A DNA stretch of 64,000 nucleotides from a bacterium (GTDB lineage: Bacteria; Patescibacteriota; Minisyncoccia; UBA6257; WO2-44-18). The position numbers and the translations under genes are program-made. Location of the stretch: assembly GCA_030646995.1 (NCBI GenBank), contig JAUSKF010000004.1, positions 20,404 to 84,403 on the forward strand, in the 5' to 3' direction. Under the pieces are notes generated by a model. It searched no databases. It saw only the letters and a list, made by a program, of their open reading frames with translations, and had not been told where the DNA came from. Below are positions 8,709 to 48,768 of the stretch, piece after piece; within the stretch, counting starts at the first letter, position 1, and the number at the start of each line of letters is the position of its first letter.

Positions 8709-8747
8709 ACATTTCAATATTTCCAGATTTAAAATATAATTACTCTT

Positions 8748-9338: not shown

Positions 9339-9361
9339 AACTTCAGTGGACAACTTTTCGA

Positions 9362-9874: not shown

Positions 9875-9881
9875 TTTCCAG

Positions 9882-10274: not shown

Positions 10275-10307
10275 TTCCGTTAACGGTTTTTTGTTATACT
10301 GGTAGGA

Positions 10308-11936: not shown

Positions 11937-11937
11937 C

Positions 11938-12405: not shown

Positions 12406-12505
12406 TCTAATCCCCCATTCACGCTAGAATGAGGGATTTTTTTATGGCTTTGTGTTACGTGTACCAGACTTATAAAATTAGAGATAAAATGGTATAGTTA
12501 TTAGA

Positions 12506-13496: not shown

Positions 13497-13620
13497 TGCT
13501 TCTCGGACACAGAATAGCCCCACTCCAACGGTGGGGCTTTCTTCTCTCTCGGCGGTTAATCGTTCGTAAAATAATAACGAACGAACCAAGCTTAACCGCC
13601 TCCGAGATGTTCCTTAAAGC
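13497..13620 (+). repeat. Structured ~125-bp repeat element, copy A (family shared with 34014-34140 and 48568-48704)
   Basis: Shares CTCTCGGCGG-hairpin(GTTCGTTCG..CGAACGAAC)-CCAAGC..AACCGCCTCCGAGATGTTCCT core with copies B and C; 5' hairpin differs by compensatory changes. Confidence 0.7.
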
Positions 13621-13685
13621 AACACGACCAAGCCCCAAGACACCAAGAGAACAAAAAGTAGCCTCACTCATGTTGGGAGGCGTAG

Positions 13686-29643: not shown

Positions 29644-31167
29644 CTAGGTGCGGAGCTCCCCCATATCCAACTGATAATCAAAATTAATCTGCGCGGCGAA
29701 TTCCTTCATGTGACTGACTACAATCATCGCGCCATCATATTTACTCAATGCTTCGGCGATGACCGGCAGATGACGGAAATTAATATGGTTAGTCGGCTCA
29801 TCTAAAATCAATAATCCCGGCCTCTGCAGAACGAAGCGGGCGAAAGAAAGGAGCCCTTTCTGACCCTCCGACAACGAACCAACTTTATTTTTCAGAAGAT
29901 CATCAGTCAAAAGAAAATTCGCCGCTGCCGAACGCAAAGACTCTTCCGATCCCCCTTCCATAACATCCGCCAGAGATTTATAAACCGTCTGCTCAAAATC
30001 CAAGCCGGCAAAATCCTGCTGATAGTATCCGATTTTCACACCATCGCTAATTGAAGCCCCTTTAGCTTTTCCGGAAGCAATCAGCTGCAAAAAAGTACTC
30101 TTACCGATTCCGTTCGGACCTTTTAAAAGTAATTTGTTTTTCCGCTTCAAAATGACATTAACCTTTTTTTGAGTCGGCTTGTGATTTTCCATCACCGTCA
30201 CGGCTTTAATCTCGGCAATCTTCCATTCCGGCAATTCGGAATCTATGAAAGTCTGTACCGGAATCGCAAAATTCCGAATTGTTTTGTCTTCCTGTCTCAT
30301 ATCCACCAGTTGGGATTCCAGTTCTTCTATCGCCTCTCCCATCTTGCGGGCCACATCACGCATCTTGCCTCCTTTCTGGGCGAAAAAATTGAATTGTTCT
30401 TTGCGATTAGTAATATCCCGCTCCAAACGAACGTTGGCCTGACGCTCCCTTTCAATCCGACGGGCGATTTCCGCCACCACATCCAAATAATCACCGACAT
30501 ACTGCTCCATTTTTCTGGTAAAAGAATCCAGATATAAAACCCCATGCGTAAATGCATTTAAAAATTTCGCGTCGTGAGAAATAACAATGCAAGTCTTTTC
30601 ATAATCCACCAAAAACTTCGTTAATCGCTCAATGCCCTCTTTGTCGAGATTGTTAGTCGGCTCATCGAGCAACAAAATATCCGGATTTTGAATCAACGCA
30701 AAGGCCAACAATAAACGCGCCTGTTGGCCGCCGGAAAATTCCCGGACTTTCTTTTTTTCATCGAACTTCAAATTCACCACATTCAAGATTTTCTTTACCT
30801 TCGGCTCAATATCATAAACCTTCTCCTGAAATGCCTTTTCGAAAAATTGAATTACCGTCAAATCCAACTGATCACGAGGAATTACCTGCTTAGCAGTAGC
30901 AATAGTCGCGCCGTCTTTTATATTAATTGCGCCTTCTTCCGGCTCCACCTCTCCGGAAATCATTTTGAAAATGGTACTTTTTCCGGCGCCGTTCTGCCCC
31001 ATTAAAGTCATTTTGGCTCCTTCCCGTATGCTAAAATCCACCTCATCCAAAAGAGTCTTGGCGGCTGTGAATCCGAAAGTAACTTTATTAAACCTTAAAA
31101 CCACATCTCCGTGGTCGTAGTTTTTAGCCTCTTTTTGCGGTTGTTTAGCTTCCTTCTCCTTAGCCAT
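29644..31167 (-). CDS. ABC-F family ATPase (tandem ABC domains, translation-associated EttA/Uup-like)
   Basis: Two Walker A (GQNGAGKST, GPNGIGKST) and two ABC signatures (FSGGQQARL, LSEGQKGLL), no TM domain. Confidence 0.85.
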   Translation of the reverse strand: MAKEKEAKQPQKEAKNYDHGDVVLRFNKVTFGFTAAKTLLDEVDFSIREGAKMTLMGQNGAGKSTIFKMISGEVEPEEGAINIKDGATIATAKQVIPRDQLDLTVIQFFEKAFQEKVYDIEPKVKKILNVVNLKFDEKKKVREFSGGQQARLLLAFALIQNPDILLLDEPTNNLDKEGIERLTKFLVDYEKTCIVISHDAKFLNAFTHGVLYLDSFTRKMEQYVGDYLDVVAEIARRIERERQANVRLERDITNRKEQFNFFAQKGGKMRDVARKMGEAIEELESQLVDMRQEDKTIRNFAIPVQTFIDSELPEWKIAEIKAVTVMENHKPTQKKVNVILKRKNKLLLKGPNGIGKSTFLQLIASGKAKGASISDGVKIGYYQQDFAGLDFEQTVYKSLADVMEGGSEESLRSAAANFLLTDDLLKNKVGSLSEGQKGLLSFARFVLQRPGLLILDEPTNHINFRHLPVIAEALSKYDGAMIVVSHMKEFAAQINFDYQLDMGELRT

Positions 31168-31254
31168 ATGTTTGGAAATGATATCATAATTGCCTTATTT
31201 TGTCCCGTCGCGCCAATTTTAAATATAAAGAAGGCGGGATCCCGCGCAGCGGGA

Positions 31255-31285
31255 TAAAAAAACCCCCGAATTCGGGGGGTATTCT
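31255..31285 (-). terminator. Intrinsic terminator
   Basis: CCCCCGAATTCGGGGGG hairpin with T-run on minus strand after PP2C-like gene. Confidence 0.65.
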
Positions 31286-31904
31286 ATTTCAGTGGAACGA
31301 CTACGGCGGAGTAGTTCGGCCGGGGCAGCTTTTTCTGAGCCGCCTTCACCAAAGCCTCCGCAGACTTTTCGGGATCACAACATTCACGAACGATGCGGGA
31401 AATCTCGGAGATATCTAAAACCGAAAAAAGATTGGAATTTCCGGAAACCAGATAGAGGTCTTGGTCGTCAATCATCTCCCAATCGATCTTCGGCCGCGTG
31501 AATCCACTTTCCAGCACTTGCTGGGCAGGAGGACGAATCTTTATCAAACTGCTTTCACCATCCACCCGGACCCGCAATAGCTTAGCTTCGTCAGCAGCAG
31601 CAAACCAAATCCCATCGCCGGAAACCAAGAAGCATACGAAATTTTCAATACGCCGGCCGCTTTCCATCAAGACGTCATAGCCCTCCTGAAACGCCGAAAT
31701 CTGCGACCTGGTGGAATTCAACACTCTTAGAAACCGTCCGGTGAATTCGGTGACCAAACAGCTCGCTTCCTGAATTCCCGGATCAGCTTCCTCATAGAAG
31801 ACCCCGAACACCCATCCAGGCCGGTAAAAATCTCCAATCACATCGCCGGGCGACATCAACGAATCATCGCCACGCGACCGGAGAAAGCCTACAACTCTTT
31901 TCAT
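31284..31904 (-). CDS. PP2C-family Ser/Thr phosphatase-like protein (possibly degenerate)
   Basis: 206 aa; LVSGDGIW, LVSGNSNLFSVLD and C-terminal NYSAVVVPL resemble PP2C motifs. Confidence 0.4.
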   Translation of the reverse strand: MKRVVGFLRSRGDDSLMSPGDVIGDFYRPGWVFGVFYEEADPGIQEASCLVTEFTGRFLRVLNSTRSQISAFQEGYDVLMESGRRIENFVCFLVSGDGIWFAAADEAKLLRVRVDGESSLIKIRPPAQQVLESGFTRPKIDWEMIDDQDLYLVSGNSNLFSVLDISEISRIVRECCDPEKSAEALVKAAQKKLPRPNYSAVVVPLK

Positions 31905-31922
31905 TGCAAGCTCCTTATTCTA

Positions 31923-32480
31923 ATGAACCGATGGTTATATTACCAACTCTCCAGAAGAACGTCAAATATTCGCAATAGTGCTATAATTACCTTAATGATT
32001 GGAGAAATACTTTTAGTTTTAGCGGTGTTCGCCCTATTCGCAATCGGACTATTAGGCACGGTGCTACCGATATTGCCGGGGGTGCCACTAGCATGGCTTG
32101 GTTTATTTATTTACGCCTACGTGAAACATTTCGAACCGATTTCCCTGACTACCATCCTAGTCTCCCTTGGTCTAACCATCCTTACTCTGATTACCGACAT
32201 AATCGCTCCGCTGATTGGAGCCAAGCGATATCACGCTACCAAATATGGAGTAGTGGGCTCTTCGTTGGGTTTGCTGTTTGGAATATTCGCCCTCGGACCG
32301 CTGGGAGTAATCGTTGGTCCATTCTTGGGAGCGCTAATCGGAGAAGTTGCCGCGGGAAGAAAATCGAAGGACGCGATCCACTCCGCTATGGGAACCTTTC
32401 TCGGGTTCCTCGCCGGCTCACTGATTAAATTGATAGTCATTTTCGTAATGCTGGGATTTTTCATCGTTGCCTTGTTCTAG
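31923..32480 (+). CDS. DUF456-like membrane protein
   Basis: 185 aa, 4-5 TM helices, Gly-rich helices. Confidence 0.45.
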   Translation: MNRWLYYQLSRRTSNIRNSAIITLMIGEILLVLAVFALFAIGLLGTVLPILPGVPLAWLGLFIYAYVKHFEPISLTTILVSLGLTILTLITDIIAPLIGAKRYHATKYGVVGSSLGLLFGIFALGPLGVIVGPFLGALIGEVAAGRKSKDAIHSAMGTFLGFLAGSLIKLIVIFVMLGFFIVALF

Positions 32481-32483
32481 AAG

Positions 32484-32530
32484 AGTAATCGCTAATAATG
32501 CTAATTAAAGATTTAATATTGCGAATGGGC
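32484..32530 (+). repeat. 47-bp TGCGAAT-triplet motif, copy 1 (copies also at 47541-47587 and 62233-62283)
   Basis: AGTAATCGCTAATAATGCTAATTAAAGATTTAATATTGCGAAT; three spaced A(T/A)NGC(G/T)AAT half-sites. Confidence 0.6.
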
Positions 32531-32588
32531 TTAAATACTCATTATTTGCATTATTTGCCAAAATTCGTATTATTAGCGAAAACTAACT

Positions 32589-33557
32589 ATGTTAATTGAC
32601 GACGTTACAATCAAAATCGCCGCTGGGCATGGAGGCAAAGGTGCCGTGGCTTTTGATAAAAATAAATTAGCCCTCGGCCCGGCCGGAGGCAGTGGAGGCA
32701 AAGGAGGTAGCATCTTTTTTCAGGGCGTGGCCGACATCGGAGCACTGCGTCATTTTCGTTTCAGAAAAGTAGTAGAAGCAGAAAACGGCCAAGAGGGTCG
32801 CGGTCAATATCGCGACGGCCAAGATGGGCAGGATTTGGTCTTAAAAGTCCCCGCCGGCACAGTCATCCACAATCTCGCGACCGGAGCACACACGGAGGTC
32901 ACAAAAATTGGGGAGAAGATTTTAATCGCGCAAGGGGGCAAAGGAGGCAAGGGCAACTTTCAATTCCGCTCCCCTCGCGATACCAGCCCAGTCAGATTCC
33001 AATCTGGACTACCGGGAGATGAATTTCCTGTACGGCTAGAGCTCAAACTGATTGCCGGTGTTGGTTTAGTTGGCCTGCCGAATGCCGGTAAGTCCAGCTT
33101 GATAAATGAATTAACGGCCGCGAATAGTAAGGTGGCCAATTACCCCTTCACCACACTGGAGCCAAGTTTGGGCGCTTATTATGACCTAATTATCGCTGAC
33201 ATTCCGGGACTAATCGAAGGAGCATCGGGCGGCAAAGGCCTAGGAATAAAATTCCTTCGCCACGTAGAGCGCACGCAGACGATTTTCCATTTAGTTTCCG
33301 CCGAATCAGCGAATGTAGCCAAAGATTACAAAATTATCCGCGGTGAGCTGGGAGAATACAACCAAGAATTACTGGAAAAGAAAGAATATGTTTTCCTTAC
33401 AAAAAGCGACATGCTGGATGCCGCCGGATTGAAGAAAAAACTCGCCACCCTGAAAAAACTAAATAAAAACGCCATCGCCATTTCTATCCACGACTCCGAC
33501 AGCCTCGAGAAAGTAAAGAAAATCTTAAACAAGCTCATCGACGCGAAGAAATCTTAG
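32589..33557 (+). CDS. obgE: GTPase Obg/CgtA
   Basis: Obg-fold Gly-rich N-terminus (GGKGGSIFF), G1-G4 GTPase motifs. Confidence 0.9.
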   Translation: MLIDDVTIKIAAGHGGKGAVAFDKNKLALGPAGGSGGKGGSIFFQGVADIGALRHFRFRKVVEAENGQEGRGQYRDGQDGQDLVLKVPAGTVIHNLATGAHTEVTKIGEKILIAQGGKGGKGNFQFRSPRDTSPVRFQSGLPGDEFPVRLELKLIAGVGLVGLPNAGKSSLINELTAANSKVANYPFTTLEPSLGAYYDLIIADIPGLIEGASGGKGLGIKFLRHVERTQTIFHLVSAESANVAKDYKIIRGELGEYNQELLEKKEYVFLTKSDMLDAAGLKKKLATLKKLNKNAIAISIHDSDSLEKVKKILNKLIDAKKS

Positions 33558-33566
33558 GTATTTGAC

Positions 33567-33600
33567 AAAAAAACTAGCTAGAGTATGATAAACGAGTTCG
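33567..33600 (+). promoter_or_regulatory. Sigma70-like promoter for RRM gene
   Basis: TTGACA-16nt-TATGAT, ~65-nt 5'UTR. Confidence 0.4.
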
Positions 33601-33663
33601 TAGGTTTCTCAGTCAAGTTAAGTCTTCTGAGTGGTCGCCCTATGAAAATTAATTAAATTACAC

Positions 33664-33942
33664 ATGGCAAAGAAATTGTATGTTGGTAACTTGCCTTACA
33701 GCGCTAACGACGAATCTCTAAAGGAGATGTTCGCAGCTGCTGGCAGCGTAGAGTCCGCTACCATTATCATGGATCGCGCCACTGGCCGGTCAAAGGGCTT
33801 CGGTTTCGTCGAGATGACGAATGACGAGGAAGCTACTAAAGCTATTGAAATGTTCAATGGCAAAGATATGGGTGGTCGCGCTCTCACTGTTAACGAGGCA
33901 CGTCCAATGGAGCCCCGCGCTCCTCGCGAGTCCCGCTACTAA
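33664..33942 (+). CDS. RRM-domain RNA-binding protein
   Basis: RNP-2 LYVGNL and RNP-1 KGFGFVEM; terminator hairpin at ~33957-33992. Confidence 0.8.
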   Translation: MAKKLYVGNLPYSANDESLKEMFAAAGSVESATIIMDRATGRSKGFGFVEMTNDEEATKAIEMFNGKDMGGRALTVNEARPMEPRAPRESRY

Positions 33943-33971
33943 GCGCGACTTACACAAAAACCGCTCTCGAT

Positions 33972-35105
33972 TTATCGGAGCGGTTTTTGGTTGCAGAACA
34001 CCCTACATCTTTCGGCCAGACAGCTTCTCGGAAACAGAATAACTTTTCTCCTGCGGAAAAGTTTTCTTCGCTCTCGGCGGTTGTTCGTTCGATTATATAA
34101 ACGAACGAACCAAGCCCAACCGCCTCCGAGATGTTCCTCAAACCAATCTGACCGAAAGATGGGTACTTCCGTCGACGGAAGTAATAAATTTAGCCTCGCT
34201 TTTATTTTATTCGCGTTCCCATGCCCCAACATCCCCAAATATGACTGCCGGGATTGCTCATTTGGATTCTCTTTCAATCTCCGGAACATTTTCCACTTTG
34301 TGACGAAGCGAATAACCCTATGATCCGGGAAATGCACCCAGCCGAGAAAATCCACTCCCGAAACAAGGGTCTTCAGAAATAACTTGTCTTTGTGAATGAA
34401 TAATTTGAGATTCTCCTCAAGGAAATCCTGAATTTTCGGGATTATTTCCACAAGTCGTTCCTTGTCCGGAGACAAAAACACAAAGTCATCGGCGTATCTT
34501 ACGTAATGTCGGGCTTTGAGTTTATGCTTCACGAACTGGTCAAATTGATTCATATAAACATTAGCGAATAACTGGGAAGTGAGATTGCCGAGGGGCAGAC
34601 CAAAACCCGGCTTGGTGGAGAAACTACTTATGACATTCTCTAACAGCCAAATTATTTTCTGGTCGGGAATATATGCCTTCAGAATTTTGAGAAGAATCTG
34701 ATGATTAATGCTGTCAAAAAACTTTTTGATATCACACTTTAATACCCAGCAGGTTTTGGTGTGATTTTTGCTAACTTTATATGCTATCGCTCGGAAACGA
34801 TTAAGCGCTCGATGGGTTCCCTTTTTGATCCGGCAGGAAAACGAATCGGCAAAGAAAGTTTTATCAAAAAATGGATAAAGCAATCGGTGAATGGCGTGAT
34901 GAACGAGACGATCGCGAACTTCCGCCTTGTGAATGATGCGTGGTTTGGGGTCGGCGATTCGGAATTGATAATAGCCGCCGTGACGGTATCTTTGACTTGC
35001 CAACTCCCCGTGAAGCGATAGAATGTTATCCATAAGATTGAAACCGAATTCCTGCACATCCTTTTTACCTCGCTTCCCCTTCAAGAATTCCTGCCAAGCA
35101 ACCAA
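33972..35105 (-). CDS. Diversity-generating retroelement reverse transcriptase
   Basis: RT motifs incl. YADDFVF (motif C), GNLTSQLFANVY (DGR-type motif 4 with SQ), VDFLGW; N-terminal region colinear with Bordetella-phage-type bRT; last ~60 codons read through repeat element B and are probably not genuine. Confidence 0.85.
   Translation of the reverse strand: MVAWQEFLKGKRGKKDVQEFGFNLMDNILSLHGELASQRYRHGGYYQFRIADPKPRIIHKAEVRDRLVHHAIHRLLYPFFDKTFFADSFSCRIKKGTHRALNRFRAIAYKVSKNHTKTCWVLKCDIKKFFDSINHQILLKILKAYIPDQKIIWLLENVISSFSTKPGFGLPLGNLTSQLFANVYMNQFDQFVKHKLKARHYVRYADDFVFLSPDKERLVEIIPKIQDFLEENLKLFIHKDKLFLKTLVSGVDFLGWVHFPDHRVIRFVTKWKMFRRLKENPNEQSRQSYLGMLGHGNANKIKARLNLLLPSTEVPIFRSDWFEEHLGGGWAWFVRLYNRTNNRRERRKLFRRRKVILFPRSCLAERCRVFCNQKPLR
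34014..34140 (+). repeat. Structured ~125-bp repeat element, copy B; overlaps 3' end of RT ORF on opposite strand
   Basis: ~90% identical to copy C (48568-48704 reverse complement) and core-identical to copy A. Confidence 0.7.
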
Positions 35106-35166
35106 AAGATTTTCAATAGAAATTATATCCTCAAAACTATGACGGAATTGAATTCTACCTATAACG

Positions 35167-35176
35167 CCCCCCCCCC
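35167..35176. repeat. Homopolymeric C10 tract in divergent RT/avd promoter region
   Basis: ACGCCCCCCCCCCAGCC between RT start (35105) and avd start (35191). Confidence 0.8.
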
Positions 35177-35190
35177 AGCCGATTTTTCCG

Positions 35191-35532
35191 TTGTTGCATA
35201 AAATAAAAGATGCTTACGCGCTTTGGTATTCCTACTACCAGATTCTACCAAAAACCCACCGCTACTCGCTCGGCCAGAAAATTGACTCTCTTTTTGTAGA
35301 AATTATAGAAACCGTGGCTGCTGCCGGCTTTATCGCCAAGGAAAAGAAGCTGGCATATTTAAGTTTGGCGATTATGAAAGTAGATACGCTAAAAGTTTTG
35401 ATGATGGTTCTCTGGGAGAATAAATCGCTGAACGATAAAAAATATATTCAAATATCTTTTAAAATAAGCGAACTAGGAAAAATGCTTGGCGGCTGGCTGG
35501 GAAAGATTCAGAAACAAAACTCTCCCCGCTAA
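35191..35532 (+). CDS. avd: Avd-like accessory variability determinant (four-helix-bundle protein, TIGR02436-like)
   Basis: 113 aa, basic helical protein with pattern resembling 23S-IVS/four-helix-bundle family; divergent to RT and adjacent to TR. Confidence 0.65.
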   Translation: MLHKIKDAYALWYSYYQILPKTHRYSLGQKIDSLFVEIIETVAAAGFIAKEKKLAYLSLAIMKVDTLKVLMMVLWENKSLNDKKYIQISFKISELGKMLGGWLGKIQKQNSPR

Positions 35533-35544
35533 AAAGCGGGGAGA
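35521..35544. other. GC-rich hairpin flanking TR (DGR hairpin/cruciform candidate)
   Basis: CTCCCCGCTAAAAAGCGGGGAGAG; avd stop codon lies in loop. Confidence 0.6.
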
Positions 35545-35555
35545 GAAATAGATAG

Positions 35556-35690
35556 ATTTGCGACGACCGAACACCCAGACGTTGTCGGGATTCCAGAAGT
35601 TGTCAGCGTTGCCGTTGTTCGCGTTGAGCCAATGCTCATCGCTATTATGCTCCACGTTGAACACGTTCGGGTTGCCGTTCGAGTCAGTTA
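35556..35690 (-). repeat. DGR template repeat (TR), Asn/AAC-rich
   Basis: ~135 bp; coding-strand reads ...NGNPNVFNVEHNSDEHWLNANNGNADNFWNPDNVWVFGRRK; 24 of 25 mismatches vs VR lie at TR adenines. Confidence 0.85.
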
Positions 35691-35935
35691 TATATAAGAG
35701 GCTGCCTATGCCACCGCCCATTGAATACTCTCTGGGTTGTATCGAATTCCGTACCTAAAGTACGATAGCCTCTTATACCAAGTATCTCTATTTTTTTAGA
35801 GTTCTGCGCGCGCCACTCTATCTCCAACCTTGATCAGAAACACACTCGACACGCGGATACTGGATTCGGCAGCAAGGAACCTTAGTCCCCCGCGTATTCG
35901 CCTAATACCAAAATTATATTAACATACGCTAAAAA

Positions 35936-35970
35936 CAAAAACCCCCGCGCTCGAAAGCGCGGGGACAAAG
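35936..35970 (-). terminator. Intrinsic terminator after DGR target gene; doubles as VR-proximal hairpin
   Basis: CCCCCGCGCTCGAAAGCGCGGGG with T-run on minus strand. Confidence 0.65.
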
Positions 35971-36008
35971 AGTCAAAGGGCCAGGTCAAAAGTTCCAAGG
36001 ACTAAGAG

Positions 36009-36764
36009 CTACTTGCGACGACCGAACACCCAGACGTCGTCGGGATCCCAGAAGCGGCCAGCGTCGCCGTCGCTCGCGTGGAGCCAATGCCCACCGCCAT
36101 CCGGCTCCACGCAGAACACGAACGGGTAGCCGCTCGAGTCAGAAATCGGCTCCATTCCGACCAGAATCCATTCCCCGTAAGGCTGGTCCTGGTATTGGAG
36201 GCGGAGCTGGGGGCCGACTTCGGCAGGGCAGCGATCCAAGCCAAGCTCTTTGGCTTCGGCGTAGATCTGCTCGCGAGTGCCGCCACTGGGAAGTCCCAGT
36301 TGGGCGACCGTCATCTTGACCAGATCGATCTCTATCTCCTTGGGGTTGACCGAGATCTTTTTCAGAATGTCGTTGCCCCAGTCAGAGACCCGGTTTTTCT
36401 TGCCGATGATGGCCTTTCGGAGAGCCTCCGGAGACGGATGCGTTCCCAGCTTGAGGGTCTTCCAGACAGGAAGAGCGGAAGAGCATCGAATCGGCTTGAT
36501 CTCGCCAACCCTGGCAATCGCCTGGTCGATTCGGTCGCAGAACTGCTGAAGTCCGGTGATTTTTTCACCGAGCTCAGAACGAAGCACCTCCAAATCATTC
36601 TTGTGTGCCTGCTTCGCTTCCGAAAGCTGGTTTTCCAACTCTCCGATTTTCTTCACCTCTTCCTTGGCCTCCTCGCAAACTTTCGTCAAATCCCCACTCA
36701 AGTCGACGTCTTCTTCAGACTTCTTTTTTCCGCTCACCGGAGCTCTCCTGAATTGGGTTATCAA
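36009..36764 (-). CDS. DGR variable (target) protein: N-terminal coiled coil, C-terminal ligand-binding domain ending in VR
   Basis: C-terminus ...GYPFVFCVEPDGGGHWLHASDGDAGRFWDPDDVWVFGRRK encoded by VR; perfect TTGACA-17-TATATT promoter upstream. Confidence 0.8.
   Translation of the reverse strand: MITQFRRAPVSGKKKSEEDVDLSGDLTKVCEEAKEEVKKIGELENQLSEAKQAHKNDLEVLRSELGEKITGLQQFCDRIDQAIARVGEIKPIRCSSALPVWKTLKLGTHPSPEALRKAIIGKKNRVSDWGNDILKKISVNPKEIEIDLVKMTVAQLGLPSGGTREQIYAEAKELGLDRCPAEVGPQLRLQYQDQPYGEWILVGMEPISDSSGYPFVFCVEPDGGGHWLHASDGDAGRFWDPDDVWVFGRRK
36012..36147 (-). repeat. DGR variable repeat (VR)
   Basis: Matches TR over ~135 bp with adenine-specific substitutions (AAC->AGC/TAC/TTC/GAC/CAC etc.). 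Confidence 0.85.
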
Positions 36765-36803
36765 TTTTTATCCGCCGAATAGCGGATTTGTGAACTGCCG
36801 TAA

Positions 36804-36832
36804 ATATAGCAGAGTTGAGGCTATTTGTCAAC
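36804..36832 (-). promoter_or_regulatory. Sigma70 consensus promoter of DGR target gene
   Basis: TTGACA-17-TATATT on minus strand; paralogous promoter at 38407-38436. Confidence 0.6.
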
Positions 36833-36862
36833 CCCAACCTTTGGCCCTCCTTAGGGGGCAAC

Positions 36863-36950
36863 GGGGGGGGATATTGACTTAGTCCAAATGGAACGCTATA
36901 ATGGGGATACTAAACGTGAAGGGCATCCTATATGGGTGCCCTTCGTTTTT
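36863..36950 (+). promoter_or_regulatory. G8 tract + TTGACT-17-TATAAT promoter followed immediately by intrinsic terminator (tiny transcript unit)
   Basis: G8 36863-36870, -35 36874-36879, -10 36897-36902, hairpin GAAGGGCATCCTATATGGGTGCCCTTC 36918-36944 + T6. Confidence 0.5.
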
Positions 36951-37573
36951 TATTCCATTTTTATACGCTCTCTAAGATATTCGAAGTCCCTGAAATCACT
37001 GCCTGCAAACTGCTTGATTTCTTTAGCAGTCCTCGCTCCTCTACCTAAAACCACAACCTCTTTCTTCTCAGATCGAAGATGTTTCAATACGGGAAGGAAG
37101 TCTCCATCGCCTGACAAAACAAGAACTCTATCAAAATTGTCTTTTTCTCTCATTAAGTGAAAGGCCATATCCACATCACAATTAGCTTTTCTTTTTGTGG
37201 AACCGTCATCTTGGTTATATAGCTTTACTGGTTTAAGAAAAAGTTTGTATCCGAACTTCTCAAGACGAATATAGAATTTAACTCTTTGAAGATGTCTACT
37301 GATTAAAGCGAGCTGCGCTTCATTGAGCTTCCTGTCTTTGTTCTCGGGTAGCTGTCTCAAATACTTCTCTAGCTCTTTTAGAGGAACGGTCTCATTGGAT
37401 TGGTAATCATATGGAAATTCATAAATTTCCACGCCGCCAAAATAAAAAACCGTATCTACTCCATATTTTTCTTTTAGATACTCAAGGAGTTTTTTGTAGT
37501 CTATTTTCCAACCTAAACTCTTTTCGCCGCCATAAAAAAGATTGGATGCATCCACAAAACCATATGCTTTCAT
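36950..37573 (-). CDS. NYN-domain (LabA-like, PIN-fold) ribonuclease
   Basis: GFVDASNL..., ANCDVDMAFHLM, VLSGDGDF motifs of PF01936; AT-rich, sandwiched between the two DGR target paralogs. Confidence 0.7.
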   Translation of the reverse strand: MKAYGFVDASNLFYGGEKSLGWKIDYKKLLEYLKEKYGVDTVFYFGGVEIYEFPYDYQSNETVPLKELEKYLRQLPENKDRKLNEAQLALISRHLQRVKFYIRLEKFGYKLFLKPVKLYNQDDGSTKRKANCDVDMAFHLMREKDNFDRVLVLSGDGDFLPVLKHLRSEKKEVVVLGRGARTAKEIKQFAGSDFRDFEYLRERIKME

Positions 37574-37654
37574 GCGTCTATTTTATAATAAAAGCTCGCA
37601 ATAAAAAAGCCCTCATGAAGCTAGCTTCATGAGGGCGCCCAAGTGTCCAAGGGC

Positions 37655-38341
37655 CTAAGACTTGCGGACGGCGAGGAAACGATAGCTGCCGTACCAATCG
37701 CTGCCGAACCAGTAGAGATTGAGCTTCCGAACGTCGAACCAGTACAGATACGGCACGCGGCGGTTGCCGAACGAGCCCCGCCAAGGATTCCCGAGCCCGA
37801 CGATCGGATATTGCTTGTGCTCGTCGGGATGGGCCATCTGGTAGTGGAGGAGCGTCTTCAGGGAGGCCGGTTCGAAGCCGTCACGCTTCATCTCGGCGAC
37901 CACGTTGTCGGAATTCATGTCCCGACTGAAGTGATACATCTTGCACTCCAGCGTTTCCGTGCCGTCCGTCTTCTCCTGATTGAAATGCTTTTCCGTGATG
38001 TCGGAGTTGACGTAGCTAAACCCGGCTTCGCCGATGAGCTGAGAGATGGACTTTCCGTAGTTCACGATCAAGGAATTGTCCGGAGGCTTTCCGGATTTCG
38101 CGCGACCGAACTTGTCGATCACTGCCTGAATCTTCTCGGCCGTCGCTTTCGCGCTGGCCGCCACCTGCTCCATCTCCGACTTGGCTTCCTGAAGAACCTG
38201 CTCAGCTTCCTGCGACATCGTGTCTAGCTTGCCCTTGAGATCCTTATTGATCTCTTCCAAAGCAGCAATCACCGGGTCCCACATGTTCTGGCTGTTCTCC
38301 ACTGCCTCCTCCACGTCGGAAGACTTCTTTTCTTCGCTCAC
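37655..38341 (-). CDS. Paralog of DGR target protein (coiled-coil N-terminus; C-terminal region diverged from TR)
   Basis: Colinear with target 1 (…YQ..Y.IVG.G.P… then W/F/G-rich tail ending RKS); near-identical promoter/5'UTR to target 1 (TTGACA-18-TACATT). Confidence 0.6.
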   Translation of the reverse strand: MSEEKKSSDVEEAVENSQNMWDPVIAALEEINKDLKGKLDTMSQEAEQVLQEAKSEMEQVAASAKATAEKIQAVIDKFGRAKSGKPPDNSLIVNYGKSISQLIGEAGFSYVNSDITEKHFNQEKTDGTETLECKMYHFSRDMNSDNVVAEMKRDGFEPASLKTLLHYQMAHPDEHKQYPIVGLGNPWRGSFGNRRVPYLYWFDVRKLNLYWFGSDWYGSYRFLAVRKS

Positions 38342-38541
38342 GGCAATCTCCTTGAATTGGGTTTTCAGTTATTTTCCGCTTAATTGCGGACTTCAGAACT
38401 GCGGTAAATGTAGCACACTTTAGGCCTATTTGTCAAGAAGTCTGTTTAAGCACGCTAAAACCTCCTCAACGTCAACACCGCCTTCTCTAATAGACGTAAA
38501 ATCTATGATTGTTTCCCAGCCCTCTTCTTGTTTCTTTGACT

Positions 38542-38775
38542 CTAAAAATTTAGCCATTTGTCCTTTGGAATACCGGACTGCGCAATCATACCCTTGAAAG
38601 TTCGAGGTTTAAAAGTTTTTGATGAATGAAACGGTACGCAAACTTGCATCAATTTTCCCTCATAGACTCCGGTGAAAAAATGATGACTCCCCTCCGTATG
38701 ATTCAGGCGAAAACCGTGCTCTTTTAAAAACTCTACAACATCATGAAACGTCCAATTAAAAACCTTTCTAGGCAT
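38542..38775 (-). CDS. hicA: HicA-family toxin (mRNA interferase)
   Basis: 77 aa, YcfA/HicA pattern (…HTEGSHHFF…). Confidence 0.7.
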   Translation of the reverse strand: MPRKVFNWTFHDVVEFLKEHGFRLNHTEGSHHFFTGVYEGKLMQVCVPFHSSKTFKPRTFKGMIAQSGIPKDKWLNF

Positions 38776-39109
38776 GCACCAAGCTACGGTTACTCATGCT
38801 GCCAAAAGTAAACACGTTTGACGGCACATCTTCTTTATTAGACTTTTTTACCTCCAATGAGTTCCACATATTTTCATATTCGGAATCAGTTTTTTGATTC
38901 AAAATATGATTGATTCGAGCTTTGGCCTTTTTAGCTGATTTTAAATATCCACGGGTGGCTTCAAGCAAAAGGAACAGAGCCTCATCGGGCGTGTCGCCCG
39001 ATTCCACAATATTAAATTCCAAACCAACGCCATACCAAACACCCTCTTCGCGAAAGATTATATACCTTAAAGACCCTTTTTGCAGAGTATTTTGATGTAG
39101 TTTAGTCAT
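38768..39109 (-). CDS. hicB: HicB-family antitoxin (N-terminal HicB/UPF0150 domain)
   Basis: 113 aa, overlaps hicA start by 8 bp. Confidence 0.6.
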   Translation of the reverse strand: MTKLHQNTLQKGSLRYIIFREEGVWYGVGLEFNIVESGDTPDEALFLLLEATRGYLKSAKKAKARINHILNQKTDSEYENMWNSLEVKKSNKEDVPSNVFTFGSMSNRSLVHA

Positions 39110-39166
39110 TGACTGTTAGTTTAATTTTAACAGAGGGAGGGGGAGGGGTCAATCAGCTACCAAGCC

Positions 39167-40399
39167 CTACATCTGCCTTATTTCCTCCACTATCTTATCC
39201 AACCCAATCGCGCGGGAACCTTTTATCAATATCAAATCCCCTTTTTTCAATAAATCCTGCACCGGAATCCTTGCTTCATCTGCGAAGTCGAAAGTAAAAA
39301 TATTTTTCCTAGCCAGCCCGGCTTTCTGCGCGGCATCGGCAATAAACTTCGCTCTCGGCCCAACAGTTATGATAATATCAAAAACTTTTTCGGCTAACCG
39401 ACCGACGTTCTCATGAGCTTCAATTGCATACTTTCCAATCTCCAACATATCTCCCAGCACCGCTATTTTTCTTAGTGCCTTAAAATCTTTCATCGTATCA
39501 ATGGCGGCGTGCATTGAAAGCGGAGAGGCGTTATAGCTATCATCAAAAATTAAAGTATCTTTTATTCCTTTAATAATTCTACCGCGACGCTGTGGCACCT
39601 GATAATAAGCCAAGGCCTCCGAGATACGCACAAGATTCATACCGAAAGAAAATCCTACTGCTGCTGCTGCGGCGGCGGCATAAGCCTGAGCCCTACCAAA
39701 GGCTCCATCAAGACGAACCGGCACGAAACTGCCTCCATATTCCAATTTAAAAGTAAGACCGACAGGATGGCCGTCTTCCATTCTGTTTTCAAAATTAGTA
39801 ATCCGCACTTCGGCGCCACTCGCAAAACCAAAAGTAATCACGTGAGCGCGAGTCTTCTCCCTCATTTCATATACCGCCTCATCATCAAAATTCAGAACTG
39901 AAAAACCGATAGCCGGCAAAGCTTCAACCAATCTGGCTTTTTCCCGCGCCACCGCATCGGGCCCGCTATAAAACTCAACGTGCACAGGAATATCGCCGAT
40001 TGCCGTCACCACTCCGATCTGCGGCCGGGCCATCTCCAAAAGATATTTCAAATCGCCGGGCTTATCGGCTCCGTACTCCAATACCAAAATTTCCGGATAA
40101 GAGCCGCGAATCACTAGCCTCATCAAAGAGGAAAGAATCACTTTAATCCAGAAAAAAATACCCCCCGATTTTTCCCAAGTTCCTAAAATTGTGAGCGGCA
40201 AACCAAATTCATTATTAAAATTTCCGGTTGAGGCCCGAACTTTCCGGATTGAGCGTAGGGTCGTCAAAATCGCTTCTTTGGTAGAAGTCTTCCCTACGGT
40301 ACCGGTAATGCCCACAATTCCCGGCTGATACTTACGTAAAGTCCATCGCACCAGCAACCTCAAAATCCCCCTCAATTGATTGCGTAAAAATGATCGCAT
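39167..40399 (-). CDS. murF: UDP-N-acetylmuramoyl-tripeptide--D-alanyl-D-alanine ligase
   Basis: Mur ligase P-loop GITGTVGKTSTKE, Mur ligase C domain. Confidence 0.85.
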   Translation of the reverse strand: MRSFLRNQLRGILRLLVRWTLRKYQPGIVGITGTVGKTSTKEAILTTLRSIRKVRASTGNFNNEFGLPLTILGTWEKSGGIFFWIKVILSSLMRLVIRGSYPEILVLEYGADKPGDLKYLLEMARPQIGVVTAIGDIPVHVEFYSGPDAVAREKARLVEALPAIGFSVLNFDDEAVYEMREKTRAHVITFGFASGAEVRITNFENRMEDGHPVGLTFKLEYGGSFVPVRLDGAFGRAQAYAAAAAAAVGFSFGMNLVRISEALAYYQVPQRRGRIIKGIKDTLIFDDSYNASPLSMHAAIDTMKDFKALRKIAVLGDMLEIGKYAIEAHENVGRLAEKVFDIIITVGPRAKFIADAAQKAGLARKNIFTFDFADEARIPVQDLLKKGDLILIKGSRAIGLDKIVEEIRQM

Positions 40400-41994
40400 T
40401 AGTTTTTATCGGCCAAATCGTCTGCCGGAATATTATAGTAGTTTAGTATAAATTGAGCTAATTCCCTAAAAGCGGGCACCACGGTAGAGCCAGCAAGGCT
40501 CGCGCCTTTGGGTTTATCAATTTTCATCAGAATTGAAAACTTCGGATCAGAGGCCGGCCCAAATCCGACATAGCTATGAATATATTGGTCGCCGTATCCT
40601 CCCCTCTTAAAATCCGGAACCTGCGCAGTACCGGTTTTGCCGGCAATTTCATATCCATTAATTCTGGCAATCTCGGCCTTGTCTACGGCGGAGACCATCA
40701 TCGCAGTAACCAAATCAGCGGACTCTTTGGAAATTACATCATTCATTTTTTCGGCCGGCAAACCCTTGACGATGTGGGGCCGCATTAACTCTCCATCGTT
40801 AGCGATAGCAGAAACAGCGTTAATCAACTGCATGGGCGTTACCGAAACACCCTGACCGAAAGCGGCGGTAGCAAAATTGATATCCCGAGTGGCAGTTTTC
40901 AAATTAGTCAGTTTGCCCGATAATTCGCCGGGCAAAGTAATGCCGGTAGGATCATCAAAGCCAAACTTCAAAAGATAATTATAAAATATATCATGGCCGG
41001 TCTTTTTTTCCGCGAAAGATGCTCCGGTATTAATAGACTGCTCGATAACTTCGGTCATAGTGACATTGCCATGAGCTTTGCCGTCCCAGTTTTTAATTGT
41101 CTTCCCATTCAGAGTCAGGGAACCGCTGTCGTAAAATTTCGTAGTCGGAGTAATTTTGCCAGAATCAATTCCGGCCGCCATCGTCAACACCTTGAACACC
41201 GAACCGGGCTCATACACGCCCTGAATCGCCGGATTAGTGAAAGACCGAATCGGGTAATCAGCATATGCGTTAGGATCAAAATTCTCGAAACTTCCCATAG
41301 CTAGAATCTCTCCGGTCTTAGGCACCTGCACAATCACTGTGCCACCCTCTGCTCCATGTTTATCAATTAAAGCTTTTAGAATCTTTTCGGCCTGCGCCTG
41401 AATGTTTCGGTCGATGGTCAAGTAGACATCATCGCGGCCTAAAGAATCTTCGTAATAGGCTTCTACACCATAACGGCCCGTCAGGGCCCCATCTTCACTG
41501 CCCTGACCCACGAAACCAAGAACTTGAGATGCCAGATTAGCGAAAGGGTAGAATCGGAAATATTCACTGTCGATGTAAATACCCTTGAGGCCCAATGCCC
41601 GAACCTTTGACACCTGTTCGTTGGTTGCCTTGGAAGATAATAATTCATATTGATCGTTCGGCGTGGAAGGCTTCAGGTGAATTTTGCCGGCCGCAATATT
41701 CAAAATCGACGACAGGGCATTGGCTGCTTCATCGGGATCTTCCACGTCTTTCGGCACGGCAAAAATCACCGGAAATTGTCGGTTAAAAACCGCCGGAATC
41801 TCATTACCGCTTTTATCCGTAAAATAAATAGTGCCCCGAGTGGAATTTAAATAAGAAACACCCCGCGATTGCGAAACGGCTTTGGCGGCATAAATACTCC
41901 CCTTCTTAATCTGTAAATTATAGATATTCAGGATCAGCGCGGAATAAGTGAAAAATATTGAGGCGGTAATCAGCCATAATCTCCAAGTTTTCAT
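40399..41994 (-). CDS. ftsI: Penicillin-binding protein (class B transpeptidase, FtsI/PBP2-like)
   Basis: SVFK (SxxK), SxN, KTGTA motifs; N-terminal TM + dimerisation domain. Confidence 0.85.
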   Translation of the reverse strand: MKTWRLWLITASIFFTYSALILNIYNLQIKKGSIYAAKAVSQSRGVSYLNSTRGTIYFTDKSGNEIPAVFNRQFPVIFAVPKDVEDPDEAANALSSILNIAAGKIHLKPSTPNDQYELLSSKATNEQVSKVRALGLKGIYIDSEYFRFYPFANLASQVLGFVGQGSEDGALTGRYGVEAYYEDSLGRDDVYLTIDRNIQAQAEKILKALIDKHGAEGGTVIVQVPKTGEILAMGSFENFDPNAYADYPIRSFTNPAIQGVYEPGSVFKVLTMAAGIDSGKITPTTKFYDSGSLTLNGKTIKNWDGKAHGNVTMTEVIEQSINTGASFAEKKTGHDIFYNYLLKFGFDDPTGITLPGELSGKLTNLKTATRDINFATAAFGQGVSVTPMQLINAVSAIANDGELMRPHIVKGLPAEKMNDVISKESADLVTAMMVSAVDKAEIARINGYEIAGKTGTAQVPDFKRGGYGDQYIHSYVGFGPASDPKFSILMKIDKPKGASLAGSTVVPAFRELAQFILNYYNIPADDLADKN

Positions 41995-42281
41995 CGCTGC
42001 GCTAAATACTCCGGCTTGCGCTCCTTTATCAATCCTAATTTTCCGGCCAGAACATCAGCGTTTTCTATATCCAACGCCAAATAAAGCTGATTTTTCAAAT
42101 CGGCGTTCTCTGCCCGCACAATCTCTGTTTTTTTATGATTTTCTTTTAAAGAATAATTCAACTGCACGCTCTGATTATAAGCAAAAATACTTAAACCCGC
42201 TTCAAATAAAACCAAACCCATAAGCAAATAGGCTACTATTTTAGATTTAAAACTATTTTTATTTGGTTCAATGATTGTCAT
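41991..42281 (-). CDS. ftsL: Cell division protein FtsL-like (septum formation initiator)
   Basis: 96 aa, single TM then coiled coil; position between rsmH and ftsI. Confidence 0.55.
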   Translation of the reverse strand: MTIIEPNKNSFKSKIVAYLLMGLVLFEAGLSIFAYNQSVQLNYSLKENHKKTEIVRAENADLKNQLYLALDIENADVLAGKLGLIKERKPEYLAQR

Positions 42282-43168
42282 ATGATTTGTGCGGCCCGTA
42301 TCTTGGCCGAGCGAGAGCGTGGATTACTCCTCACCTCTTCGTCGCTGGCCTCAACCGGTTTTTTGGTCAGAATTTTCAATTTCTCTTCCTTGGCATAATC
42401 ACGGAAATAATTTTTGACTATCTTGTCTTCCAAAGAATGGAACGAAATTATCGCGACTCGCCCGCCGGATTTAACTATCTTGAACAAATCCTTCAAAACT
42501 TTTTCCAGATTGCCCAGCTCGTTGTTGGCATAAATGCGCAGCGCTTGGAAAGTACGGGTCGCGGGATGAATTCTTCCATGCTCATAATTTCCTGGCACTG
42601 CTGATTTCACCGCCTCCGCTAAATCGAAGGTGGTGTTAATTCCCCGTCGGTGAATGATCTCTTTGATTACTCGGGCGATTCTCCCCGAAAATTTCTCTCC
42701 TCCCAAATCCCGAATGATTCCTGCTAACTCTTTCTCGGTCAGCTCTTTTAAAATCGTGCGGACGGGATTTTGATTGATGTCATAAACCATCGCCAACGGT
42801 TCATTGATCTGAAAGCTGAAGCCCTTGCCACCGCCAAGCTGCTCGGAAGAGAAACCTAAATCAAGAAGAAGACCATCGGCTTTGCCCAGTTTTTTGGCTT
42901 TCAAAATCTCCACAAGGTCGGCGTAATTTTCTCCGGTCTTTTCCCAATCAATGGCCAGTAGCCTCCCTCCGCCGGCTGGCGGACCAATCCGTTCCTGAAT
43001 CGCCCGACTATGACCACCGGCTCCGAAGGTTCCGTCAATGAAAAATTCTCCCGGCTTCGGTTCGAGAAATTTCAGAACTTCATTTAAAAGAACGGGCACG
43101 TGACCACCGACTGACGACTTATGACTGGCGACTGAAGGACTTGTCGTTAGTTGTTTGTCGTAAGTCAT
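42278..43168 (-). CDS. rsmH: 16S rRNA (cytosine1402-N4)-methyltransferase
   Basis: HVPVLLNEVL...FIDGTFGAGGHS MraW signature. Confidence 0.9.
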   Translation of the reverse strand: MTYDKQLTTSPSVASHKSSVGGHVPVLLNEVLKFLEPKPGEFFIDGTFGAGGHSRAIQERIGPPAGGGRLLAIDWEKTGENYADLVEILKAKKLGKADGLLLDLGFSSEQLGGGKGFSFQINEPLAMVYDINQNPVRTILKELTEKELAGIIRDLGGEKFSGRIARVIKEIIHRRGINTTFDLAEAVKSAVPGNYEHGRIHPATRTFQALRIYANNELGNLEKVLKDLFKIVKSGGRVAIISFHSLEDKIVKNYFRDYAKEEKLKILTKKPVEASDEEVRSNPRSRSAKIRAAQII

Positions 43169-43171
43169 TTG

Positions 43172-43603
43172 TTAAATTCCGAGCTCTCCCAACTTTTCGG
43201 CTATGTCGTCGGAAGAGGCTTCGGTTTTAGATTTGTAGGACTTCCAGTTTGCTTCATCCCAAATTTCAATTCGGTCGTAGAGTCCGGCAAAAATCGCCTG
43301 CTTTTTTAGCGATGCATAAATTCGCAAATATTCCGGAATCAGAATTCTTCCCTGATTATCAAATTCCACTTCACTCGCGCCGGCGAGCATCAAACGAGCA
43401 AACGCCCGAGAGTCGGATTTCATAAAAGACATAGCCGCAATCTTGGCAGTTAATTTTTCCCAGCTCTCTTTCGTGAATACAAATAAACAATGATCAAGTC
43501 CACGCGCGATAATTGCTCCATCGCCAAGCTTCGGCCGAAATTTAGCGGGTAAAGCTACTCGCCCCTTAGTATCTAAGCTATGTGTGTATTCTCCAATGAA
43601 CAT
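43172..43603 (-). CDS. mraZ: Transcriptional regulator MraZ
   Basis: Duplicated DxxxR(V/I)xLP MraZ motifs. Confidence 0.85.
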   Translation of the reverse strand: MFIGEYTHSLDTKGRVALPAKFRPKLGDGAIIARGLDHCLFVFTKESWEKLTAKIAAMSFMKSDSRAFARLMLAGASEVEFDNQGRILIPEYLRIYASLKKQAIFAGLYDRIEIWDEANWKSYKSKTEASSDDIAEKLGELGI

Positions 43604-43817
43604 TTTTTATATTTTTTAAGCTCGTTTAAGCTTAATTACTCTCCTATCAGTTGTCCCCAGATTCGGCGGTTATCCCCACCTTTATCCACTTTTCACCACT
43701 ACCAACTAAATATAGCTTAAAGTGAGCTCATGCAAAACCCACTTTATCCCCAAAAGTTAATCACGACTTTTTAGGCATTGAAAAAGAACCAATTAAGCAT
43801 TAGATTAAATAAATCTT

Positions 43818-43890
43818 GCGCCCTTAGCTCAGTGGTAGAGCGTTCCATTCACATTGGAAAGGCCGTTGGTCCGATTCCAACAGGGCGCAC
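43818..43890 (+). tRNA. tRNA-Val (anticodon CAC)
   Basis: GCGCCCT acceptor, GCTCAGTGGTAGAGC D-arm, anticodon loop TTCACAT, T-arm GTTGGTCCGATTCCAAC, 3' AGGGCGC+A; followed by hairpin CCGCCCGGTTAGGGGCGGG. Confidence 0.75.
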
Positions 43891-43925
43891 AATAAAAAAA
43901 TCCGCCCGGTTAGGGGCGGGGGCTA

Positions 43926-48567: not shown

Positions 48568-48704
48568 GGCTAGACAGCTTTAAGGAACATCTCGGAGGCG
48601 GTTGTGCTTGGCTCGTTCGTTATGTCCGAACGAACAGCCGCCGAGAGAGAAGGAAACTTTTCCGCAGGAGAAAAGTTATTCTGCTTCCAAGAAGCTGTCT
48701 GGCC
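48568..48704 (-). repeat. Structured ~125-bp repeat element, copy C, with 13-bp terminal inverted repeats (GGCCAGACAGCTT/AAGCTGTCTAGCC)
   Basis: Reverse complement ~90% identical to copy B at 34014-34140. Confidence 0.7.
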
Positions 48705-48768
48705 GAGCCATTGACTTGAAAATACTGTAGGCGTACTTTTAAGGCAGCTACTTTTCAAGGAAAAGCCG

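Follow-up and report, generated by a model that had tools for sequence, protein, structure and literature searches.

A probable mosaic island at the murF stop codon of a Patescibacteria genome, with a diversity-generating retroelement, a hicBA-like pair and a predicted NYN nuclease gene probably paired with a small RNA

The stretch of DNA considered here, a 64,000-nucleotide portion of contig JAUSKF010000004.1 that we call the window, comes from a bacterium of the candidate phyla radiation (CPR; Patescibacteria). Near its middle it carries the reverse transcriptase (RT) gene of a diversity-generating retroelement (DGR), the gene of the accessory protein Avd, a template repeat (TR), a target gene (T1), a gene for a predicted nuclease with a NYN domain, a second target-type gene (T2), and a hicA toxin gene preceded by a putative antitoxin gene. 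An earlier, sequence-only reading of this region had described the NYN gene and the hicBA pair as embedded between and beside the targets of the DGR, and had proposed that they stabilise the locus, act on the RNA transcribed from the TR, or mark the whole block as a mobile island. After comparing the region with related loci from other genomes and metagenomes (designated below by L numbers), we favour, with a probability of roughly 0.7, the reading that positions 33993-39166 are a mosaic island of autonomous modules, that the NYN gene and hicBA are independent of the DGR, and that the NYN gene is paired with a small RNA (sRNA).

The NYN gene occupies 36950-37573 on the minus strand, exactly as first described, and its 207-residue product matches the NYN family of Pfam (PF01936) with 66.4 bits against a cutoff of 24.2 (E = 5.1e-18, profile positions 5-138 of 145). 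The composition check that had been suggested confirms a sharp contrast: the GC fraction is 0.36-0.42 in the NYN gene and hicBA and 0.53-0.60 in the two genes that flank the NYN gene, as compared with about 0.45 in the surrounding window. Thus, the description of the NYN gene as lying between two GC-rich target paralogs holds for its position and for the GC contrast, but not for the paralogy, since T1 and T2 do not match significantly as proteins (BLASTP E = 4.7). Promoters and terminators are found in the window sequence around each gene of the island, which makes these genes independent transcription units.

The DGR beside the NYN gene is genuine, with an RT, an Avd protein and a TR that differs from its variable repeat (VR1) in an adenine-specific manner. 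The RT is encoded at 33972-35105 on the minus strand (Pfam RVT_1, 1.6e-26), Avd at 35191-35532 on the plus strand (Pfam bAvd, 2.2e-12; NCBIfam DivGenRetAVD, 7.8e-18), and T1 at 36009-36764 on the minus strand, with a probable true start at the GTG at 36737, a promoter at 36803-36831 and a terminator at 35941-35966. The TR (35558-35687, minus strand) was aligned over 130 nt to VR1 (36013-36142), which lies within the 3′ end of T1, and 20 of the 21 mismatches between them fall on TR adenines. The open reading frame (ORF) of the RT encodes 377 residues, while those of relatives encode around 320; the difference is due to a repeat of about 130 nt at its 3′ end, the conserved core stopping near 34213 and the C-terminal 55 or so residues being a read-through into this repeat. 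The Avd gene lies between the RT gene and the TR, on the strand opposite both, and it is found in the same place in all of the loci of this RT clade that have it (50 of 71). DGRs have been described in CPR bacteria (Paul et al. 2017, as cited in PMC6602519), and Avd and HRDC-domain proteins have been named as accessory genes of these elements (PMC6602519). The DGR of the window resembles Avd-type DGRs, such as those of Bordetella phage BPP-1 and of CPR genomes, in its RT, Avd, TR and a VR at the 3′ end of the target, in its adenine-specific mismatches and in a hairpin downstream of the VR; it is unlike them in the orientation of Avd relative to the RT and TR, in having the NYN gene and hicBA as neighbours, not components, and in being accompanied by a second DGR-type gene, T2, that lost or never had a local TR. 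Wu et al. 2018 reportedly also list MSL and CH1 as accessory genes of DGRs. We also considered whether NYN or the genes of this DGR clade are phage genes, a possibility that we set aside given that only two matches in IMG/VR were found for this DGR clade and a single one for the NYN gene.

T2 lies on the other side of the NYN gene (37655-38341, minus strand), with a promoter at 38407-38436 and a terminator at 37609-37636. Its C-terminal region is of a VR type that has cognate TRs in other DGR loci (L071, L013 and L118), and the protein is 40% identical to a bona fide DGR target of L071. Nevertheless, a scan that tolerated differences at adenines found nothing on either strand of the whole window, the TR included, that T2 matches, the best candidate having 33 non-A mismatches over 120 nt, and the idea of a second TR serving T2 within the window was rejected. 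Given its VR-type C-terminus and the lack of a local TR, T2 is therefore an orphan DGR-type target, which may either have been retired or be served by a TR located outside the window. For the same reason, the NYN gene adjoins the DGR rather than lying within it, contrary to what had been proposed.

What T1 and T2 share is only a leader of about 105 nt, with 76% identity, that covers the promoter, the 5′ untranslated region and the start codon, together with a short 3′ trailer. The trailer of T2 (37640-37660) resembles that of T1 with the pattern CGCAAGT...CTTAG.CC.TTGGA, and the VR-type 3′ end of T2 extends over 37655-37800. The two copies of the leader in the window (36740-36845 and 38320-38440, minus strand) have counterparts in L085 (1912-2003), L155 (10591-10697) and L172 (around 5000-5120), and consist of TTGACAAATAG, TAYATT, a TCCGC-loop-GCGGA hairpin, AACCCAATTCA, GGAG and a GTG start, followed by codons for Ser-x-Lys-Lys-Lys-Ser. 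This leader heads unrelated genes of the DGR-target type, namely T1, T2, an ORF of 254 residues in L155 and a T2-like gene in L172, and its sequence conservation ahead of such different genes suggests that cassettes are exchanged behind one expression signal.

The claim that the block is a mobile island fared best of all, and the synteny comparison that had been recommended supports it directly. L170 and L171, whose MurF, Obg and RRM proteins are 87%, 87% and 99% identical to those of the window, carry just 8 bp in place of positions 33993-39166 of the window, a segment of 5,174 bp (5.17 kb). These loci are collinear with the window over 29654-33992 and 39167-43913, the blastn collinearity stopping at 33992 and resuming at 39167, and the genes of L170 are arranged in the order MraZ-MraW-FtsL-PBP-MurF, followed on the opposite strand by RRM, Obg and DUF456. 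A direct repeat of 10 bp, CCCTACATCT, is found on the plus strand at 34001-34010, at the left junction, and at 39165-39174, at the right junction, where it overlaps the murF stop codon; these are its only two copies in the 64 kb. The empty site has a single copy of its 8-nt core, CTACATCT, which reads as the terminal part of murF (...ATG TAG) in reverse complement. In L172, a closer relative (MurF 93%), the murF site is occupied by another T2-like gene, headed by the same leader, and lacks hicBA; what follows murF thus varies within this lineage. The island would have been inserted at the murF stop codon of a Parcubacteria-type CPR genome, between the cell-division cluster and the RRM-obg genes. 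At its left edge, directly 3′ of the conserved RT core, lies the repeat of about 130 nt mentioned above (34012-34142), which contains a palindrome and resembles miniature inverted-repeat transposable elements (MITE) or repetitive extragenic palindromic (REP) sequences. Further copies of it are found in the window at 48579-48706 (89%) and 13498-13622 (80%), and another in L084 (4155-4268).

As for the NYN gene itself, its product is predicted to be a nuclease on account of its domain and its acidic active-site residues: at least 97% of 82 family sequences retain D8, N11, D133, D156 and D158, which belong to the acidic, metal-binding or active-site set. It matches PDB entry 2qip (VPA0982) with E = 1.3e-5 and the NYN model of PADLOC with 3e-11, while its score with the NCBIfam model TIGR00288 is far under the cutoff. 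Thus, it resembles the LabA-like NYN proteins (PF01936; VPA0982; NYN and HEC-09 in PADLOC) in its domain and acidic residues, and differs from them as a distinct and tightly conserved CPR subfamily with an insert of about 60 residues and an obligatory convergent sRNA. The gene has an extended -10 box located 6 to 8 nt ahead of the ATG and no Shine-Dalgarno sequence (37574-37600, minus strand), and the same holds at the equivalent positions across 79 NYN loci, which have a -10 box that is often TGnTATAAT-like, no Shine-Dalgarno sequence and no conserved -35 box. From these sequences, the NYN mRNA is probably leaderless.

Directly downstream of the NYN gene, and facing it on the plus strand, there is a promoter with the sequence TTGACT-17-TATAAT (36874-36902), which agrees with the consensus at 11 of 12 positions, followed by a predicted sRNA of about 45 nt (36907-36952; covariance-model match of 68.9 bits; minimum free energy of -21.6 kcal/mol). 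This RNA would consist of a 5′ tail with the conserved 10-mer ACUAAACGUG, a hairpin of 11 bp and a U-run that overlaps the NYN stop codon. Across NYN loci, the conserved stretch reads, on the strand opposite the NYN gene, as a sigma-70 promoter, a spacer of around 6 nt, the near-invariant ACTAAACGTG, the 11-bp hairpin and a T-run. Promoter, tail, hairpin and U-run are present in all of the 80 NYN loci aligned across CPR bacteria; the promoter consensus is TTGACA-17 nt-TGnTATAAT, with the TTG of the -35 box and the TA...T of the -10 box invariant in 80/80 loci, and 7 of the 10 positions of the tail ahead of the hairpin are kept in at least 90% of the sequences. The hairpin is supported by covariation, with compensatory double changes in 10 of its 11 pairs among 72 distinct sequences and a covariation score of 0.629, as compared with 0.247 in shuffled alignments (none of 500 reached the observed value) and at most 0.165 in slid controls. 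In addition, one U-G wobble pair is invariant, and 99.9% of the cells pair on the sRNA strand as opposed to only 86% on the NYN strand, an asymmetry from which it follows that the RNA encoded opposite the NYN gene is what is under selection.

The covariance model matches beside the NYN gene at every NYN locus in which the downstream DNA is present, and it has no other match, and none at any site lacking a NYN gene, in 730 kb made up of the DGR-anchored loci, the hicBA-anchored loci and the window. One additional copy was observed in L050 (968-1009, minus strand; 47.2 bits), about 1 kb upstream of the NYN gene of that locus, and it may be preceded by a divergent or decayed NYN gene. Rfam contains no family that matches the RNA at the gathering score, the best sub-threshold hits having an E value of at least 0.5. 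We also examined whether the 5′ tail could pair in trans with the NYN coding region and rejected this idea, given that GTTTAG is present at codon 18 in only 12 of 78 ORFs and that synonymous variation there is unconstrained. Altogether, the alignments strongly support a structured RNA, predicted to be the product of a previously undescribed RNA gene linked to NYN genes.

The NYN gene and its predicted RNA partner travel through very different surroundings. We found 2,822 homologs of the protein at E < 1e-5, with 66-93% identity to the window protein, in many CPR phyla, among them Harrison-, Giovannoni-, Nomura-, Wolfe-, Gottesman-, Roizman- and Doudnabacteria. The 145 genes that directly adjoin the NYN gene in 80 genome loci match 137 different Pfam families; three of these neighbours are NYN-domain proteins themselves, and some loci contain a second, divergent NYN-like ORF beside the first (for example, L074 11676-11867). 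The similarity between loci at the DNA level ends around 0 to 30 nt upstream of the ORF (occasionally 80 to 260) and 50 to 110 nt downstream of it, and the flanks cannot be aligned even between pairs that are 88-92% identical and for which 3 kb of flank is at hand. The idea that other CPR genomes keep the NYN gene in conserved synteny with obg or the dcw genes was also discarded, as the matches taken for Obg were other GTPases (such as YchF) and came only from a few Microgenomates. In one Harrisonbacteria assembly, two copies of the gene were observed (L004 and L078), 85% and 67% identical to the window protein. Given the strict linkage, the strand-specific RNA structure and the unrelated flanks, these sequence comparisons show the NYN gene and the putative sRNA to behave as one compact unit of about 0.75 to 0.9 kb.

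An alternative that we consider improbable is that the NYN protein is a vertically inherited housekeeping RNase of CPR bacteria, and that the element downstream of it is a bidirectional terminator combined with promoter-like, AT-rich DNA. Protein conservation is indeed very high, with 86 of the 207 positions conserved in at least 97% of the sequences, the family is widespread in CPR, and a hairpin followed by a T-run has the look of a terminator. However, the syntenic L170 has no NYN gene at its murF site, and neither the unalignable flanks of genes that are 88-92% identical nor the presence of two copies in one genome is expected of such a gene. A simple terminator would likewise not account for a promoter that faces the NYN gene about 45 nt from the terminator, with its -35 and -10 boxes conserved in all 80 loci, for the near-invariant 10-nt tail ahead of the hairpin, or for selection of the hairpin, including its invariant U-G pair, on the strand that does not encode NYN.

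Whether the NYN gene or hicBA is tied to the DGR was addressed from both sides. The DGR-anchored set comprises 71 metagenome loci with an RT 41-81% identical to that of the window, of which 48 have enough flank to show the known arrangements; 50 of the 71 have Avd and 14 have T1- or T2-like genes, while NYN, HicA and HicB are found in none of them. The closest relative of the DGR, L085 (RT 81%, Avd 91%, T1 71%, same leader), has the arrangement NadE-Nudix-T1-TR-Avd-RT, without NYN or hicBA. Conversely, HicA and HicB are absent from the 80 NYN loci, only 5 of 79 distinct NYN loci are near a DGR, and homologs of both NYN and HicB occur in contexts unrelated to DGRs. The earlier reading had named just such distributions as its refutation, and the suggestion that these genes act on the TR RNA, or are otherwise linked in function to the DGR, is not supported; nothing indicates that NYN or hicBA acts on that RNA.

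Several observations nevertheless weigh against reading the island as a set of independent modules. In the 5 of 79 distinct NYN loci mentioned, DGR parts lie within 4 kb of the NYN gene, and in four of these within 600 bp; if genes were placed uniformly within the sampled flanks, such proximity would have a P of about 0.002. RVT_1 is the second most frequent family among the immediate neighbours of NYN genes, and in the locus with the nearest relative of the window's NYN (L167, 93%), a T2-like gene follows the NYN gene. Moreover, the ORF list, Pfam and NCBIfam reveal no integrase or transposase ORF or domain in 33993-39166, and several nested insertions, instead of a single one, may have produced the island. 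The first of these points could be taken to mean that this DGR clade makes facultative use of NYN as an accessory factor that, for instance, trims the TR transcript or strips RNA from a cDNA intermediate. The DGR is found beside NYN in three arrangements, with the RT convergent on NYN (arrangement A; L013/L047, L023 and L025), with NYN upstream of a T1-like target (L062 and the window), or with NYN 3.7 kb from the RT (L071), to which L167 may be added; this adjacency is tighter than uniform placement would give, and the NYN genes adjacent to a DGR are scattered across the NYN tree. Even so, we regard this possibility as highly improbable. The closest relatives of the DGR-adjacent NYN genes in that tree have no DGR, NYN is absent from all 71 related DGR loci, including the closest one, and a DGR is missing from 74 of 79 NYN loci. 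NYN and the RT converge in arrangement A, and its three loci may represent one ancestral event, in which case P would be close to 0.05 by our own arithmetic. Everywhere, with or without a DGR, the NYN gene has its own promoter, terminator and dedicated sRNA, and the literature that we searched offers no link between NYN proteins and DGR function, NYN being mentioned together with DGRs or CPR only in a general survey of domains common to bacterial and metazoan immunity and cell death. The adjacency of NYN and the DGR is thus suggestive and not obligatory, and we read it as the result of modules co-assembling in the same variable regions.

The hicBA pair lies at the far end of the island on the minus strand, hicA at 38542-38775 and the hicB-like gene at 38768-39109, with a promoter at 39124-39152. 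The HicA identification, the coordinates and the 8-bp overlap of the two genes are as first described, the toxin matching HicA_toxin of Pfam with 45.5 bits against a cutoff of 27 (8.4e-12) and carrying a GSHH motif; the upstream partner, in contrast, matches no sequence model of HicB, and we hence call it HicB-like. This protein has no match in Pfam (with E values up to 10), in NCBIfam, in PADLOC or among PDB sequences, it reaches a probability of only 15.7% with hhalign against a PF15919 protein, and Pfam detects no ribbon-helix-helix (RHH) or helix-turn-helix (HTH) DNA-binding domain in it; its C-terminal 35 residues are poorly conserved. A single-sequence AlphaFold model was too poor to be used (pLDDT 52.7) and was replaced by an alignment-based model (pLDDT 86.9), for which the top, albeit weak, Foldseek match is the HicB structure 6g1c (probability 0.94, TM 0.50/0.65, E = 0.28); the other top matches are 3k6q, 6g1n and 6u0i, none of them with E < 0.001. 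The 44 homologs detected form a subfamily restricted to CPR, a HicA_toxin gene follows the homolog directly in all of the contexts examined (L155, L160, L161/L162, L163 and L169), and some homologs are named HicB by the Joint Genome Institute (JGI). The label HicB-like is based on these three indications, that is, the hicA gene that follows, the JGI names and the HicB structures among the best fold matches. Thus, the pair resembles type II HicAB toxin-antitoxin (TA) systems in its above-threshold HicA with the GSHH motif, in an antitoxin gene located upstream with an 8-bp overlap, in an antitoxin model whose best, weak matches are N-terminal domains of HicB, and in its variable and mobile contexts, and is unlike them in that the antitoxin matches no HicB sequence model, has no detected RHH or HTH domain and belongs to a CPR-restricted subfamily. 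It is plausible that it serves as an addiction module, whose most likely role would be the post-segregational stabilisation of the island.

The contexts of the HicB-like homologs are diverse, and include IS200-type transposase genes with another hicBA (L161), a restriction-modification system (L163) and housekeeping genes (L160). In L155, at a different locus, the hicBA DNA is 89% identical to that of the window and the downstream leader 81%. There, the pair and some ORFs (8615-12456) are wedged between the PGM_PMM_I and PGM_PMM_II-IV fragments of a phosphoglucomutase gene, and hicBA is flanked by two paralogous ORFs of 252 and 254 residues (54% identical), whose 3′ ends are VR-like, with about 120 nt of high similarity and clustered differences. 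No RT is present within 10 kb of this hicBA, and L155 derives in part from the same samples as L170. Judging by these sequences, the two ORFs may be remote DGR targets carried on an insertion that splits the phosphoglucomutase gene. The similarity of the two loci raises the question of whether hicBA and the neighbouring leader-plus-target gene constitute one mobile cassette, with the TA pair specifically accompanying DGR-type targets. The window and L155 do have hicB, hicA and the downstream leader in common, with 81-89% DNA identity, a gene of the variable-repeat type follows in both, and the hicBA of L155 stands between two ORFs with VR-like ends. We nonetheless find this doubtful, given that its basis is two related genomes, that three other contexts of HicB homologs have neither such genes nor an RT, that the genes after the leader are unrelated (tblastn of T2 against L155 gave no match), and that L172, which lacks hicBA, has both the leader and a T2-like gene.

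Returning to the favoured reading, the island would be composed of four units that are self-contained, a promoter and a terminator belonging to each: a working DGR made up of RT, Avd, TR and T1; T2, an orphan DGR-type target that the local TR cannot rewrite; the presumed type II TA pair hicBA; and a NYN module made up of a probably leaderless NYN gene and an opposite-strand hairpin RNA of about 45 nt, whose terminator would abut the NYN stop codon. The NYN module and hicBA would be autonomous, horizontally moving modules that share one kind of variable region and do not serve the DGR. For the NYN module, the most likely logic would be that of an RNase that is checked by, or acts together with, its dedicated sRNA. 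The RNA could pair as a cis-encoded antisense with the NYN mRNA at its 3′ end, in a manner similar to type I systems, or it could bind the NYN protein in a type III-like manner, or it could do both. We infer that recognition by the protein is favoured, because cis-antisense complementarity to the NYN 3′ end arises by itself and needs no sequence conservation, and yet the 5′ tail is near-invariant and the U-G pair invariant.

These options recall known arrangements. In Bacillus subtilis, the type I systems bsrG/SR4 and txpA/RatA consist of a toxin gene and a convergent antisense RNA that overlaps its 3′ end, while in ToxIN, a type III system, the antitoxin is itself an RNA. By analogy, the NYN module would share with both types a potentially harmful protein gene accompanied by a dedicated sRNA gene, convergent genes with a common terminator region, compactness and movement among unrelated contexts. 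It differs from type I systems in that NYN is a nuclease of 207 residues instead of a small membrane peptide, and from type III systems in that its RNA is a single hairpin of about 45 nt instead of a processed repeat array. It is conceivable, though we would not bet on it, that the NYN gene and the sRNA are an undescribed, horizontally mobile two-component module, widespread in CPR/Patescibacteria, in which the sRNA governs the activity or expression of the RNase or guides its action, either a TA system with an RNA antitoxin or a defence-type system, with NYN as the effector. If so, its recurrence beside DGR cassettes and hicBA would reflect co-assembly into small islands.

Mobile modules that share an island are fairly ordinary, and the NYN-sRNA pairing is a variation on the known logic of RNA-partnered toxins or defence systems. 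A DGR, then, neither needs nor usually has a NYN RNase or hicBA, and their interleaving reflects autonomous modules packed into an island of 5.2 kb. The locus offers a clean case of a small, integrase-less CPR island with a precise empty site and a junction repeat of 8 to 10 bp, and the presence of a DGR aboard it is relevant to the spread of DGRs and of their targets among these reduced genomes. The sRNA has a one-to-one link with a gene that is among the most conserved and yet most context-free of CPR bacteria. If it were the RNA partner of the nuclease, it would point to a new class of effector for RNA-controlled toxin or defence modules and to a function for a gene family with thousands of members.

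A last observation concerns the surroundings of the NYN gene in L053. There, a 76-nt sequence is present three times upstream of the gene (3184-3259, 3844-3919 and 4833-4908), and the block formed by the NYN gene and the sRNA is flanked by 44-nt direct repeats that contain a hairpin (4780-4823 and 5695-5738), similar in appearance to terminator hairpins. These 44-nt flanking repeats have no counterpart around the NYN gene of the window; the repeats of L053 may hint at how the block moves.

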